Assembly: GCA_963664395.2 (NCBI GenBank)
Contig: OY761159.2
Span: 4,448,001 to 4,512,000, forward strand
Source: Candidatus Binatia bacterium
GTDB taxonomy: Bacteria > Desulfobacterota > Binatia > Bin18
Direction of reading: 5' to 3'
DNA: 64,000 bases
Below are positions 4,630 to 57,809 of the stretch, piece after piece. Under the pieces are notes generated by a model. That model was not told the DNA's origin, did not search any database, and saw only the letters and a program-made list of their open reading frames with translations. The position numbers and the translations under genes were made by a program. The number at the start of each line of letters is the position of its first letter. Position 1 is the first letter of the stretch.

Positions 4630-4673
4630 CCATACAGAATCCCGCCGCTCTTTTCCCCCCTAAAATTAGAGGA
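4630..4673 (-). promoter_or_regulatory. Conserved upstream motif shared by genes carrying the C-terminal domain (copy 1)
   Basis: 34/44 ungapped identity to 49463-49506; core cccccctaaaat..gagga also at 57791-57809. Confidence 0.55.
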
Positions 4674-4801
4674 AAAATCCCGGCGCCGCGGCAGGACGGG
4701 GAGTGGATATGCCCCCGAAGCCCCGCGCGCGGGCGGAGGGAGTAGCCGTTTGTGTGGAAACCTTTTAGCATTGCAGCAGAGATGCAGCAGAAAGGACTGG
4801 T

Positions 4802-5203
4802 ATGTTCAAGCCCAAGAAAACAGCGGAGCAGATGGTTGAGGAGGCGAAGACCCGTATTGAGAATCTGTCCGTGGGACGGTTACAACAGGAACTGGAATCC
4901 GGCGAGACGCAACTGCTCGATATTCGAGACCTGCGTGAACGTCAGAAGCTGGGCTGGATTCCGAGCGCCATGCATGTGCCGCGCGGGATGCTGGAATTCT
5001 GGCTTGACCCAACCTCCCCGTATTGCAGCGGAAAGGTTGATCCCGAAAAACGGATTATCGTGTACTGTGCCGCAGGTGGCCGGTCCGCGCTGGCGGCTGA
5101 CGTGTTACAAGATATGGGGTTTCCCAATATTGCGCATCTGGAAGCCGGGTTTAACGGCTGGGCCGAGGCCGAGCTGCCCGGAGAAAAGCCGGACAAATCA
5201 TAA
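4802..5203 (+). CDS. Rhodanese-like domain protein
   Basis: LLDIRD..ER..G.IP.A.HVPRGMLEF, active-site loop YCAAGGRS; GAAAGGA RBS. Confidence 0.93.
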   Translation: MFKPKKTAEQMVEEAKTRIENLSVGRLQQELESGETQLLDIRDLRERQKLGWIPSAMHVPRGMLEFWLDPTSPYCSGKVDPEKRIIVYCAAGGRSALAADVLQDMGFPNIAHLEAGFNGWAEAELPGEKPDKS

Positions 5204-5213
5204 TCTATTCCCC

Positions 5214-6242
5214 ATGCCCACTATCCTAGTCCTTTTGAGACGCTTCGCTCACCAGCTACGGAAAGAGCATCTGGATGTGGTCCTCTTGGTGCTGGTTGTC
5301 ATCTCCATCACCGGAATGGTGGGGATTTCGTTTTTTGAGCCGCAGTTGTCCATGGTGGACGCAGTGTGGTGGACGCTGGTGACCATTACCACGGTCGGCT
5401 ATGGCGACATCTATCCGACCTCGTTGGGCGGCCGGATCGTCGGCATCTTTCTGATGCTGTTCGGCATTGGGTTTCTCGGCATGCTGACGGCCACCCTGGC
5501 CAGCACCTTTGTTGAAAACCGGCGGCAGGAGGGAAAAGGGATGAAGTCAATCTCAAGCACCGGACATTTTGTCCTGTGCGGCTGGAATTATAAAACCAGG
5601 GAAATTATTGAAGAGATCAGGGCGGACGAAAAGGCCCGGACCCGTTCGATTGTGCTGATCGCCGATTTACCGGAGAACCCCTTGGACGGTGAACAGGTCC
5701 AATTTGTCAGCGGGGTCGTCAGCCCGGAAACCTTGGCCCGGGCTAATGCCCGAGAGGCAAAGGTAGCCATTGTGCTGGCGGATGAACAGGGTGAGGTCCA
5801 TACGCGGGATGCCAAGACGATTTTGGATACGCTCACCATCAAAACCACCTACCCGAGCCTGCATACCTGCGTCGAACTGCTTGACCAGCAAAATATTGCC
5901 CACGGCAAGCGGGCCAAGGCGGATGAAATTATTGTCACCGGTGCATTGAGCACCAACCTGCTTGTCCAGGCCGCCTTGAACCGTGGCGTGCCCCTGCTGG
6001 TCAACGAACTCGTCAGCAATCGCTTCGGGAGTGCCCTGTACACCATTCCGGTGCCGCACGCCTGCGTTGGCCATGCTTTTGTGGATGCACTGACTGAACT
6101 GAAGAGAGAACAGAATCTCCTTCTTGTAGCCGTCGAAAGCCGGGCACAGGCAAGGTTTCTTGCAAACCCACCCATCGACTATATAATCAGTGCAGAAGAC
6201 CAACTCATCGTTATTGGACAAGAGCGTCCCGACCAGGGATAA
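5214..6242 (+). CDS. Two-TM potassium channel with TrkA-N/RCK domains
   Basis: Selectivity filter TITTVGYGD; RCK LCGWN motif; start chosen after rhodanese stop. Confidence 0.93.
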   Translation: MPTILVLLRRFAHQLRKEHLDVVLLVLVVISITGMVGISFFEPQLSMVDAVWWTLVTITTVGYGDIYPTSLGGRIVGIFLMLFGIGFLGMLTATLASTFVENRRQEGKGMKSISSTGHFVLCGWNYKTREIIEEIRADEKARTRSIVLIADLPENPLDGEQVQFVSGVVSPETLARANAREAKVAIVLADEQGEVHTRDAKTILDTLTIKTTYPSLHTCVELLDQQNIAHGKRAKADEIIVTGALSTNLLVQAALNRGVPLLVNELVSNRFGSALYTIPVPHACVGHAFVDALTELKREQNLLLVAVESRAQARFLANPPIDYIISAEDQLIVIGQERPDQG

Positions 6243-55225: not shown

Positions 55226-55250
55226 CGCATGCACGGTCGCCGCGCTCCTC

Positions 55251-57758
55251 TCACTCCACGTCCGTCACGACAAAATTCTGACTATCCTGTTGCCATTCCA
55301 GGGCCACCGTCTCCCCTGGCATTGGGAAGTCCTCCACCACACATTCCCCCTCGGCCCCCCGCAGAAACTCCTTCTCGGCTCCCTCCCCCACAGTCGTCAC
55401 CCGCACCGTCGCCCGGCCTAACTCAACGTCATCCACGAAGGCCACGACTTCATGCTCGCCGTCCCCCAATAGATTCCAGTTGAACAACAACCCAAACCCA
55501 TTGTCCGTGTCCCCACACACCGGCTCCGTGTCCAACCGCTCGGTTCCATACGCGGCCGCCTGCCGCCCGGTCCCAATCTCAAGCTCGACCGTGTCGGCCT
55601 CACACACCCAGCCCGAGATAACCCCCACTCCACTCTGAAAGGAGTGCGGCCCCGGATTCTCCAGATACCCTGTCAGACCACTCGGCCGGATGCCGGTGTT
55701 AGCCCTCGCCGGGGCACTCCCGCCCACGATCACAAAGTTCTGACTGGTCTGCTGCCATTCCAAGGTCACGGTCCGGCCCATCGCCGGGAAGTCCTCGACC
55801 ACACACTCCCCCTCAGCCCCGCGCAGAAACTCCGCCCCCAGCGTCGTCACGGTCACGGTCGCCCGACCCAACTCCACGCCATCGACCAGGGCCACCACCT
55901 CATGCTCCCCGTCGCTCAACAGATTCCAGTTGAACAACAACCCAAAGCCATTGTCCGTGTCGCCACACGCCCTCAGCGTGTCCAGCCGCTCCGTCCCATA
56001 CGCCGCCTCCTGCGGCATCCCGTTCAACTCGATCTCCACCATATCGGCGTCACACACCCAGCCCGAGAGCAGCCCCACCCCACTCTGGAAAGAGTCGGCG
56101 CCGGGATTCTCCAGATAGCCCGGTGGCAACGTCACCGGGCCGCCGCCCGTGCCGCCGTCGCCCGGAGGGGTGATGACGGGAGGGGTGATGACGGGAGGGG
56201 TGATGACGGGAGGGGTGATGACGGGAGGGGTGATGACCCCCGGTGCCACCACCACCACCACCACCGTCGCCGTCGCCGTCGCCGTCGCCGTCGCCAAGGC
56301 ATCCTCCGAGCGCGCCTCCTCCCCAAAGCTGCAGCGGCCCGCCTCAGAGCCGCCCGCGTCTCGCACACCGCCCGCGTCCCCAAAACTACTCTCATCCCCA
56401 AAACTGCCCGCGTCTCGCACCCCGCTCTCGTCCCCAGAGCCGCCCGCCCCGCTCTGACGCTCCTCCTCCCCGCCCCCGAGGAGCGAACAGACCTTCCCGC
56501 GAAAATCCCCCGCGTGGTGCGAGAGGACACTTCCGCTATACCGGGGATTCACCCCCCGGCGAGCCCGCTCCGCCAAGTACGCCTGCCCCTGCAACTCGAA
56601 GTTCTCTGTGTAGAGGGCCAGCAACTCAGCCTCCGCCGTCGCCGCTCCCTCTGCATAGCGCAGAAAGTCTAGCCGGAGACTTGCCGACACCCCCTCACCA
56701 AACATCTCGCGATTCGAGGTCGTCCGATAGAGCTGCTGAACCGCCTCCCGGCTCTGATAGAGATCATACAGAATCAGAAAATCCAGGGCACGGCCGAGGC
56801 GAATGGACCCGCCGACATACTCCCCGGCTTGGGCCGGCGTCGTCACCGGCGCGCCCTGGACGTGCGTGCCCGCCGTACTCAGCAGACTGAGGTCATACTC
56901 TTCCTTGCTGAACAAGGACGCCGCCGTCTGCGTATTGCACATCCGCGCCTCGGCCACCGCCGCATAGTCACTGCGCCCCTTGAGACGCGTGAACAGTACC
57001 TCCGCATGGCGCAGACCCAGCGTCGTCCCAAACTCCCAATTCGGGGCCTGACCCCCTCTGCCGGGGAACGCGATTGACCGCCCCGGGCTCGACCGGTACC
57101 CCTCTCGCTCCAAGGGGGTCAGCCGGCGGTCCGCCGTGGTGAGCATCGTCGTAGCCAAGGTGCAGTGGGTGGGTTGCGACTCCACCGTCTGCACTTCACT
57201 CTCCGTCCCCTCCCCCAGGTTGTCATTGCCCCAGACGGGCCGATTCAGCGCGCTATGACACTGGGAACACGCCGTCCTCCCGCTGCTCGGAGACCGCACG
57301 AGCTGCGGCCGCTCCCCCGTAAAGTCGAGCGCACCCGCGGACCACTCCCCTTCTGCCGGCACGGGTCGGAGAAACTCGACTTGGTCGGCCGCAGGATCCG
57401 CCGGATTGGTCGTCCAGGTCACGATGAATCTGGCATCCGCCCCCCACGACACGATGCGCGGATGCGCCGCAGAAATAAAGGCCGCCGAGGGGCTCTCGGA
57501 CTCGAAGACGGCCAGGAAGTTGCGCTTGTGCAGCGGCGGCAGGGCCGCCACGAACCCCTCAACGGTCGTAATGGAGTGCGCGGCCAGAAACTCCAGAACC
57601 CCCCCCTCACTCATCGTCTCCGGCAGCGTCTCGGCGTGGACCGCCCCCCCGCGCAGAGCCGCGTGCCCGCCGGGCGTGAGCATCAGCACAAAAAAAGCCG
57701 CCCAGACCACACAGACCTGCCCCGTGGTGCCCCGCCCTCGCATTTTCTGATTCCGCAT
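55251..57758 (-). CDS. Secreted CxxCH (possible c-type heme) protein with low-complexity linker and 2x conserved C-terminal domain
   Basis: Signal VVWAAFFVLMLTPGGHA; CSQCH..RPVW; (PPVIT)n; two GYLENPG..NFV units. Confidence 0.8.
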   Translation of the reverse strand: MRNQKMRGRGTTGQVCVVWAAFFVLMLTPGGHAALRGGAVHAETLPETMSEGGVLEFLAAHSITTVEGFVAALPPLHKRNFLAVFESESPSAAFISAAHPRIVSWGADARFIVTWTTNPADPAADQVEFLRPVPAEGEWSAGALDFTGERPQLVRSPSSGRTACSQCHSALNRPVWGNDNLGEGTESEVQTVESQPTHCTLATTMLTTADRRLTPLEREGYRSSPGRSIAFPGRGGQAPNWEFGTTLGLRHAEVLFTRLKGRSDYAAVAEARMCNTQTAASLFSKEEYDLSLLSTAGTHVQGAPVTTPAQAGEYVGGSIRLGRALDFLILYDLYQSREAVQQLYRTTSNREMFGEGVSASLRLDFLRYAEGAATAEAELLALYTENFELQGQAYLAERARRGVNPRYSGSVLSHHAGDFRGKVCSLLGGGEEERQSGAGGSGDESGVRDAGSFGDESSFGDAGGVRDAGGSEAGRCSFGEEARSEDALATATATATATVVVVVVAPGVITPPVITPPVITPPVITPPVITPPGDGGTGGGPVTLPPGYLENPGADSFQSGVGLLSGWVCDADMVEIELNGMPQEAAYGTERLDTLRACGDTDNGFGLLFNWNLLSDGEHEVVALVDGVELGRATVTVTTLGAEFLRGAEGECVVEDFPAMGRTVTLEWQQTSQNFVIVGGSAPARANTGIRPSGLTGYLENPGPHSFQSGVGVISGWVCEADTVELEIGTGRQAAAYGTERLDTEPVCGDTDNGFGLLFNWNLLGDGEHEVVAFVDDVELGRATVRVTTVGEGAEKEFLRGAEGECVVEDFPMPGETVALEWQQDSQNFVVTDVE
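56164..56296. repeat. Stacked in-frame SSRs: 15-bp x~5 (PPVIT), 3-bp CAC x~6, 6-bp CGCCGT x~5
   Basis: Read directly from the sequence. Confidence 0.9.
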
Positions 57759-57775
57759 GGCGTCACTTTAACCCC

Positions 57776-57809
57776 ATCCTGCCACGTATGCCCCCCTAAA
57801 ATGGGAGGA
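57776..57809 (-). promoter_or_regulatory. Conserved upstream motif (copy 3)
   Basis: atcctgcc..cccccctaaaatgggagga vs atcccgcc..cccccctaaaattagagga at 4639-4673. Confidence 0.45.

Follow-up and report, generated by a model that had tools for sequence, protein, structure and literature searches.

A palindromic promoter-like motif ahead of genes for exported multi-domain proteins in a Candidatus Binatia genome, linked to candidate LuxR-type regulators and carried in part by a miniature transposable element

We analysed a stretch of 64,000 nucleotides (nt), hereafter the window, in which all window positions given below are counted; it belongs to the 5.04-Mb assembly GCA_963664395.2 of a Candidatus Binatia bacterium (here G000, with C1, C3 and C14 denoting its contigs). 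Four genes of the window encode proteins that share a C-terminal domain, and a reading of the sequence alone had pointed to a common motif of about 44 bp in front of three of them. We found that this motif belongs to a genome-wide family with a fixed architecture, and we consider it probable, with some reserve, that it is a transcription-initiation module, namely an activator-dependent promoter with a lux-box-like operator. The genes and the three motif sites, which are all on the minus strand, and a transposase remnant adjoining the third site are as follows.

Gene 1: 302..4602, minus strand; secreted protein with a PPDK_N domain, in two overlapping open reading frames (ORFs; 1618-4602 and 302-1651), with a paired C-terminal domain at 311-1171.
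Gene 2: 46144..49403, minus strand; leucine-rich repeat (LRR), PKD-like and fn3 protein, in two overlapping ORFs (47520-49403 and 46144-47730), with a single copy of the C-terminal domain at 46171-46584.
Gene 3: 55251..57758, minus strand; 835-aa protein without a Pfam or NCBIfam family, with a paired C-terminal domain at 55260-56120.
Gene 4: 49986..53138, minus strand; Spondin_N and GSDH protein with a paired domain at 50013-50897, directly behind a NUDIX gene (53072-53560).
Motif site 1: 4629..4677, minus strand; inverted repeat CCTCTAA-TT-TTAGGGG (4672 to 4657), -35-like GGGAAA (4657-4652), GCGGCGGGAT (4648-4639) and -10-like TATGGT (4634-4629).
Motif site 2: 49462..49507, minus strand; degenerate left arm, canonical right arm TTGGTAGG (49496-49489), -35-like GGGACA (49490-49485) and -10-like TATGGC (49467-49462).
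Motif site 3: 57765..57812, minus strand; CCTCCCA (57808-57802), TTTT, AGGGGGG (57797-57791) and -10-like TAAAGT (57770-57765).
Remnant: 57822..58058, plus strand; C-terminal remnant of an IS982-like transposase, adjoining the upstream end of site 3; its match to NCBIfam NF033520 (E 0.0025) covers 201-241 of the 243 profile positions and is far under the cut-off, and Pfam has no match.

The C-terminal domain, of about 135 residues, is present in all four genes, as had been claimed, and has no family in Pfam or NCBIfam. The ORF pairs of genes 1 and 2 (994 and 449 aa; 627 and 528 aa) overlap at 1618-1651 and 47520-47730, and these splits represent either real frameshifts or pseudogenes, or else assembly errors. 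Shortly ahead of the break in gene 1 lies an exact tandem repeat of about 85 residues.

The similarity between the sites stands out clearly from the rest of the window. Sites 1 (4630-4673) and 2 (49463-49506) are identical at 34 of 44 positions without gaps, while the runner-up 44-mer anywhere in the window, on both strands, reaches 25/44; site 3 (57776-57809) matches site 1 at 22 of 34 positions, also ungapped. On the gene strand they read TTCCTCTAATTTTAGGGGGGAAAAGAGCGGCGGGATTCTGTATGG (site 1), CTCCCTTAATTTTGGTAGGGACAAGGGCGGCGGAATGTTGTATGG (site 2) and TTCCTCCCATTTTAGGGGGGCATACGTGGCAGGATGGGGTTAAAG (site 3). A hidden Markov model (HMM) trained on 31 other sites of the genome, with the three window sites and a paralogue of site 3 excluded, found exactly sites 1-3 in the window, with genome-wide E-values of 3.7e-8, 9.8e-8 and 1.4e-4, respectively. 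The motif has the same orientation in each case and ends 28, 60 and 18 nt before the first start codon of the longest ORF (starts at 4602, 49403 and 57758), in agreement with the distance of 18-60 bp reported before. The signal peptides of genes 1 and 2 begin downstream of the first start codon, so the real leaders of these two genes are probably about 100-190 nt long. The exported proteins carry basic N-terminal stretches of 30-50 residues ahead of the hydrophobic signal segment (minus strand, about 4500-4600 and 49300-49400), and an RHGxxEPxL block within this stretch is the only likeness of genes 1 and 2 besides the motif. The statement that the coding 5' ends are unrelated was nearly right, except that genes 1 and 2 share a block of 38 nt (84% identity), the sole block common to the 5' regions of the three genes outside the motif. 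Gene 4 does follow the NUDIX stop directly, but the aaccgac..acagaatc echo that had been seen ahead of it is not above chance, and the leave-out HMM matched nothing upstream of this gene.

The motif proved to be a genome-wide family. An iterated nhmmer search of G000 yielded 26, then 38 and finally 39 sites at the thresholds used, and the C-terminal domain occurs there in 139 copies at 73 loci. A domain copy lies within 13 kb downstream on the same strand of 32 of the 38 motif sites, whereas none of the 38 has one when read in the opposite direction and 7.8% of 20,000 randomly drawn positions do; at domain loci of relatives, the motif matches fall on the gene strand in all cases (20/20). The motif is thus found throughout the genome but is strongly tied to the domain family, and the family-independent occurrence that the sequence-only reading had named as a test was not seen. 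A co-oriented ORF starts within 600 nt downstream of 31/39 sites, whereas a divergent start lies upstream of 14/39, and the distance from motif to start codon ranges from about 0 to about 370 nt. One LRR gene is preceded by a tandem pair of complete motifs (C1:4714872 and 4714933, 61 bp apart) inside a 423-bp element with degenerate terminal inverted repeats (TIRs) and no target-site duplication (TSD). Furthermore, the small contigs C3 and C14 repeat C1 regions at 95-99% identity, motif sites with an identical TSD included; strain variation or repeats left uncollapsed are the probable cause, so these copies are not independent.

The layout of the motif is constant: a T-rich lead-in precedes an inverted repeat around ATTT(T), which varies between sites and is mostly perfect, and the whole is arranged in the order box-GGGACA-nnn-GCGGCGG-AT-nnn-GTA. 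Among 51 distinct sites from G000 and its relatives, the most fixed columns were G27 (51/51), G29 (49), A32 (42), G36 (48), C37 (40), G39 (42), C40 (47), A44 (43), T45 (47), G49 (46), T50 (43) and A51 (44). The arms of the repeat fall into distinct types, comprising CCTCCCA/TGGGAGG, CCTACCA/TGGTAGG, CCTAGTA/TACTAGG, CCCGTAA/TTACGGG, CCTATCA/TGATAGG, CTACCCA/TGGGTAG, CTATCAA/TTGATAG, CCCCCCC/GGGGGGG and CTATAA/TTATAG. In 62 distinct sites the arms paired at a mean of 5.97 of 7 positions, compared with 3.90 when partners were shuffled between sites (maximum 4.32 in 1000 shuffles), the observed mean being somewhat favoured because the script chooses the best arms per site. Site 2 is a weak member in this respect, with only 4 of 7 pairs complementary.

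Such a repeat could also be an RNA hairpin in the 5' leader, acting in stability, processing or translation, with the promoter farther upstream; we regard this as quite unlikely. The 25-nt region does fold at a mean of -8.1 kcal/mol (shuffles -2.5), the sense strand is slightly stabler than the antisense strand (-8.1 versus -7.0), and the loop between the arms varies from 2 to 4 nt between classes. However, arm mismatches of the G:T kind (sense-strand G:U, 14) and the A:C kind (antisense G:U, 11) are balanced, which favours duplex DNA recognised by a symmetric protein over a sense-strand hairpin. Across classes, moreover, nothing is conserved upstream of the repeat while the elements at fixed spacing lie downstream; the distance to the start codon is highly variable, as given above; and a hairpin would leave the linkage to regulator genes described below unexplained. 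No Rfam family matched at the gathering score in the window, and in 20 motif loci none did so even at E-values up to 1.

The elements downstream of the repeat resemble a core promoter. The right arm overlaps GGGACA by 2 nt, and the inverted repeat thus overlaps the putative -35 region; a TAnnnn box (TATGGT, TATGGC and TAAAGT at sites 1-3) follows 17 nt past the GGGACA-like hexamer. The tRNA promoters of G000 have the form TTGnCn-17/18-TAnnnT, with -10 boxes such as TATGGT, TATGAG and TATGTA. On the putative -10 assignment, the centre of the repeat would lie 42 or 42.5 bp ahead of the predicted start. At site 3, the +1 predicted by the sigma-70 spacing rule coincides with the A of the first ATG (57758), which may be either a leaderless start or a coincidence. 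Sigma-54, sigma-32 and FliA were rejected, as their consensus sequences, compared by eye, gave no consistent alignment to the motif. Public RNA runs contained 0.06-0.08 of the sampled sequence words and gave no evidence of expression or habitat.

A candidate for the protein that reads the box emerged from the motif sites themselves. Two sites that have no domain gene immediately after them pointed to a protein of 378 residues (C1:106432-107565), which has a weak Pfam PAS match and no Pfam Autoind_bind match. Its AlphaFold model, based on an alignment of 33 homologues (predicted local distance difference test, pLDDT, 84.8), shows two alpha/beta sensor-like (PAS/GAF-like) domains and a C-terminal helical domain (helices 308-377). 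A Foldseek search against the PDB returned RhlR, SdiA, QscR, TraR, LasR, CviR, VqmA and EL222 together with phytochrome PAS/GAF arrays at E 5e-6 to 4e-4, with RhlR, SdiA, QscR and TraR at E of about 1e-5 and probability 1.00; the fold search thus supports a sensor joined to a LuxR-type helix-turn-helix (HTH). The homodimer model scored 0.75 (best of three controls 0.00), which may only reflect likeness to solved LuxR-type dimers; of proteins solved as one-chain pairs, 20 of 30 attained this score mark, as did 1 of 23 solved as single chains. Contact agreement between runs was at least 68% and partner pLDDT at least 82, with the last HTH helix in the interface.

This regulator has seven loci in G000, of which six are intact and one is broken; all of them adjoin domain genes. 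The broken one is also adjoined by a luciferase-like monooxygenase gene (C1:1913728-1914957). In 11 genomes of the genus, G000 included, we searched up to 300 nt upstream and 350 nt downstream of 39 distinct regulators, and found a same-strand motif match (E<1) near 18 of them, lying 60-270 nt before the start, 20-350 nt past the stop, or both; five more have clear palindromic boxes at E 1-8, and the rest showed nothing. One such motif, 20 nt past a regulator stop (C1:115752), is followed by a 218-aa ORF that is TetR-like by eye only. Box type and recognition helix go together: the ALEYTERSVRWYLHQ-like helix was found with the CCTATCA/TGATAGG box in 6/6 cases, ETGRQERSIHWHL-like helices go with CCCGTAA/TTACGGG, and SVYW(Y/H)LN helices with CTATAA/TTATAG. 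Consistently, in a tree of 41 regulator sequences the box types are clade-specific, with CCTCCCA appearing in two places.

The distribution across genomes points in the same direction. The domain family occurs in 16 of the 18 other genus genomes searched and the regulator in 11 of 18; a profile search of five regulator-negative genomes gave only HTH-sized fragments, in two of them. A class-independent pattern (ATTTT-N4-GNGNNA-N3-GCNGC-N3-AT-N3-GTA, at most one mismatch), which does not capture the class-2 variant introduced below, occurs 16 times in G000. It is present in 8 of the 11 regulator-positive genus genomes and in none of the seven regulator-negative ones, counts that come from kin genomes and are not independent. 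The negatives include G007, which has 60 domain matches; therefore, the motif follows the regulator and not the domain. Outside the genus the pattern was absent from all 12 genomes, and the reversed control gave no match anywhere. An exact class-specific pattern had at first suggested a species-specific motif (19 matches in G000, one to three in each of three genus genomes, and one in a genome outside the genus), an idea that the class-independent pattern overturned.

Part of the family is mobile. The ten class-2 sites (CCTACCAA-TT-TTGGTAGG) have in common a unit with sharp boundaries at -78 and about +150, which corresponds to an element of 223-244 bp with the 19-bp TIR GGTAGTGTCTCA(C/G)TTTGAA and the box 78-80 nt from its left end. 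One class-1 site (C1:1771138) lies inside an element of 319 bp whose TIRs are the same and whose TSD is perfect. These copies have the properties of a miniature transposable element with inverted repeats (MITE): the 8-bp target duplications differ between copies, and the longest internal ORF has at most 92 aa, with no transposase. Altogether, 11 of the 39 motif sites sit in such elements (19-bp TIR with at most one mismatch, 223-319 bp), with TSDs matching at 8/8 positions in nine copies and 7/8 in one and absent in one; the C14 copy among them duplicates the one at C1:1287154. Homologues at 68-93% identity occur in at least ten other genomes of the genus. A search for an autonomous insertion sequence (IS) with these TIRs gave none in G000, where TIR pairs separated by 100-4000 bp were considered, and none in L047; in G004 the orthologous intergenic spacer lacks the MITE and is too diverged to give a clean empty target. 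The possibility that the motif itself forms the inverted-repeat ends of an IS was ruled out, as there are no convergent pairs of sites.

The other 28 of 39 sites, including all three of the window, have no intact TIR pair; at window sites 1-3, no TIR was found within -500..+700 even when up to 5 of 19 mismatches were allowed, and the similarity of site 2 to class-2 sites is limited to -6..+37. Class-1 and class-2 sites have a common CGCCCTCGTCAT just upstream of the box, and several class-1 sites retain one TIR-like end, so many of the sites without TIRs may be old insertions. Because 11 copies sit in TIR- and TSD-bounded elements, transposition appears to have helped to spread the motif, for part of the family. 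One MITE copy (C1:3380885-3381108) points into an operon whose first ORFs are type I-E Cascade-like (Cse1, Cas7, Cas5e-like), by eye only.

The mobile copies raise the question of whether the motif is no more than a selfish MITE-internal sequence, such as a subterminal transposase-binding palindrome, with no promoter role and a position that reflects tolerated insertions. We think this unlikely. The 11 bounded copies are in its favour, the shared CGCCCTCGTCAT hints at a common MITE ancestry, G015 keeps the MITE without a full-length regulator, and the MITE TIRs occur at 26 of 114 genus loci, often without the motif. However, most sites have no intact TIR pair, and boxes stand at conserved places by regulator genes in 11 genus genomes without TIRs. 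In addition, the promoter direction of the MITE copies faces a co-oriented gene start in 10/11 cases, while a divergent start lies on the other side in 3/11. Also common in the genus are elements of about 70-155 bp that carry these TIRs but no promoter module (relatives' loci L026, L030, L036, L048 and L079), and therefore the TIR family is older or wider than the promoter cargo; since many of these elements, of about 150 bp, lack the motif, the motif is cargo and not transposition machinery.

The sequence-only reading had offered a second explanation, in which the motif is a 5' homology arm that, together with the conserved 3' domain, permits cargo exchange by homologous recombination. As formulated it found no support, and we rate it as very improbable. 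The paralogue of site 3 (C1:51762-53296) speaks in its favour: the two are 99% identical, with the homology ending at window position 57821, 12 nt ahead of the motif, and unrelated DNA beyond (the IS982-like remnant in the window, MITE-like sequence in the paralogue, with a left TIR-like sequence 79 nt upstream), while gene 3 and its paralogue have conserved ends and middles that differ by about 1.4 kb. Moreover, in 37 of 109 site pairs whose match spans the motif, similarity begins within 15 nt of the motif edge. Yet most of these 37 short matches are the motif itself (30 end within 70 nt), and between most sites the similarity does not extend beyond about 45 bp; a stretch of that length with 70-85% identity is, by general knowledge, poorly suited to homologous recombination. 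The copies that reveal their movement carry TIRs and 8-bp TSDs, a single duplication boundary coincides with the edge of the motif, and no recombinase is linked to the sites examined.

Of the two functions that had been proposed, the common promoter or operator is therefore the better supported, given the gene-oriented placement, the fixed spacing of palindrome and -35/-10-like elements, the linkage to a LuxR-type regulator and the co-occurrence across genomes. Under this explanation, the 16-18-bp inverted repeat would be the operator of the dimeric sensor and LuxR-type HTH regulator; it would overlap a weak -35-like GGGACA, followed by the conserved GCGGCGG-AT spacer and a -10-like (G)TAnnn. 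Should the -10 be assigned correctly, the centre of the repeat would lie about 42 bp before the start, and the regulator would act as LuxR and TraR do at the lux and tra boxes. Paralogous regulators would use different box variants, many having a box before their own gene, and the genes driven by the module would be those of exported multi-domain proteins with the paired domain at their C-terminal end. Transposition would account for part of the spread, the module being in one subfamily the cargo of a MITE of 220-240 bp. We infer the promoter activity, the start site, the sigma factor used and the binding of the box by the regulator from these features.

Several observations weigh against this interpretation. 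A consensus scanner (TTGACA, 16-18 nt, TATAAT, at least 9/12 matches, T last in the -10) found zero sigma-70-type promoters at the three window loci, and only 11/51 sites have T as the last of the six bases of the putative -10; because of these two results, the holoenzyme may be an alternative one or the -10 assignment may be wrong. A reading of the kind expected for extracytoplasmic function (ECF) sigma factors (GAC, 17 nt, GTA) fits the spacing equally well; by eye, no sigma-factor gene was seen among the genes viewed downstream of the 39 sites, and we keep it as a holoenzyme alternative only. The conserved GCGGCGG-AT block has no assigned role in the promoter model. As for the regulator, its Pfam GerE match (E 5.4e-5, 23.2 bits) lies just under the cut-off of 23.5; 21 of the 39 regulators have no motif match at E<1 within the distances searched; no regulator in G000 adjoins the most mobile box type, CCTACCAA/TTGGTAGG; the MITE copy of G015, the genome without a full-length regulator, is 93% identical; and box types that track the regulator clade are also the outcome of simple co-inheritance. 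Site counts overstate independence, since the sites in one subfamily share descent. Finally, 30 of the 73 domain loci are the first locus behind a motif and seven stand farther along a same-strand array, while 36 have no motif within 13 kb upstream; therefore, about half of the domain family uses something other than the motif.

Among known systems, the closest are the lux-box and tra-box promoters of LuxR, TraR, RhlR and LasR. They likewise have a 16-20-bp inverted repeat over a weak -35 and a box before the regulator's own gene, and their regulator ends in a LuxR-type HTH, which in the Binatia protein is predicted, as is its dimerisation. The lux box is centred at -42.5; the centre at -42 or -42.5 in the Binatia motif rests on the putative -10 assignment. 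In contrast to those systems, the Binatia regulator has two PAS/GAF-like sensor domains and lacks the Pfam Autoind_bind match, and at least eight box variants occur in one genus. VqmA (PAS and LuxR HTH) and EL222 (LOV and LuxR HTH) are similar in fusing a PAS-type sensor to a LuxR-type HTH (fold matches at E 6e-5 to 4e-4), but the overall TM-scores are low (0.17-0.27 on the query), and the Binatia regulator exceeds them by about 150 residues and possesses a further sensor-like domain at the N terminus.

Promoter-bearing MITEs are also known. According to the main text of a 2024 review (PMC10969869), they include the Correia elements of Neisseria, MITEAba12, BrickBuilt, QMITE1 and SonMITE_1, some with IHF sites; as described there, they are small, non-autonomous, bounded by TIRs and located upstream of genes, with promoter-like sequence, and the terms 'transcription factor' and 'regulon' do not occur in that main text. 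The Binatia element has its own TIR and 8-bp TSD and no autonomous partner was found for it in the searches above; it differs from the known ones in that its cargo includes an operator-type palindrome linked to a regulator family. Closely similar promoter regions before non-homologous genes of one genome, some of them on mobile elements, have been reported as putative mobile promoters or promoter reuse (Nijveen, Matus-Garcia and van Passel; PMC3575422). That work is a sequence-similarity survey, whereas in the Binatia case one can point to a candidate regulator, to the architecture of the operator and to a vehicle for transposition. Within the limited literature searched, we found nothing on the motif, the regulator family or the MITE.

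Other genes of the window include a Type ISP restriction-modification enzyme (11307-14993; N6_Mtase and Type_ISP_C), a 2080-aa protein whose sole Pfam match is HTH_upstream_double_PIN (28137-34379), and four luciferase-like monooxygenase genes (15924-17105, 22127-23503, 41385-42668 and 44027-45184).

A more far-reaching scenario, which we put forward tentatively and hold to be possible rather than probable, is that a MITE family captured a complete ligand-responsive promoter (a LuxR-type operator with its core), and that its transposition added exported multi-domain proteins, and at least one CRISPR-type operon as well, to the regulons of fast-diverging sensor-regulator paralogues. If so, transposon-driven regulon growth, a kind known from eukaryotes, would have taken place in a bacterium, and the family would provide a clear bacterial case of a transposable element that carries a transcription-factor site together with a promoter and builds a regulon. 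If the promoter interpretation is true, common signal-dependent control would extend over a large, rapidly evolving group of exported proteins that contain LRR, cadherin, fn3 and enzyme modules, and candidate sensors for it can be named. The 45-bp model would then mark likely regulon members and real gene starts in the genomes of this uncultured group.

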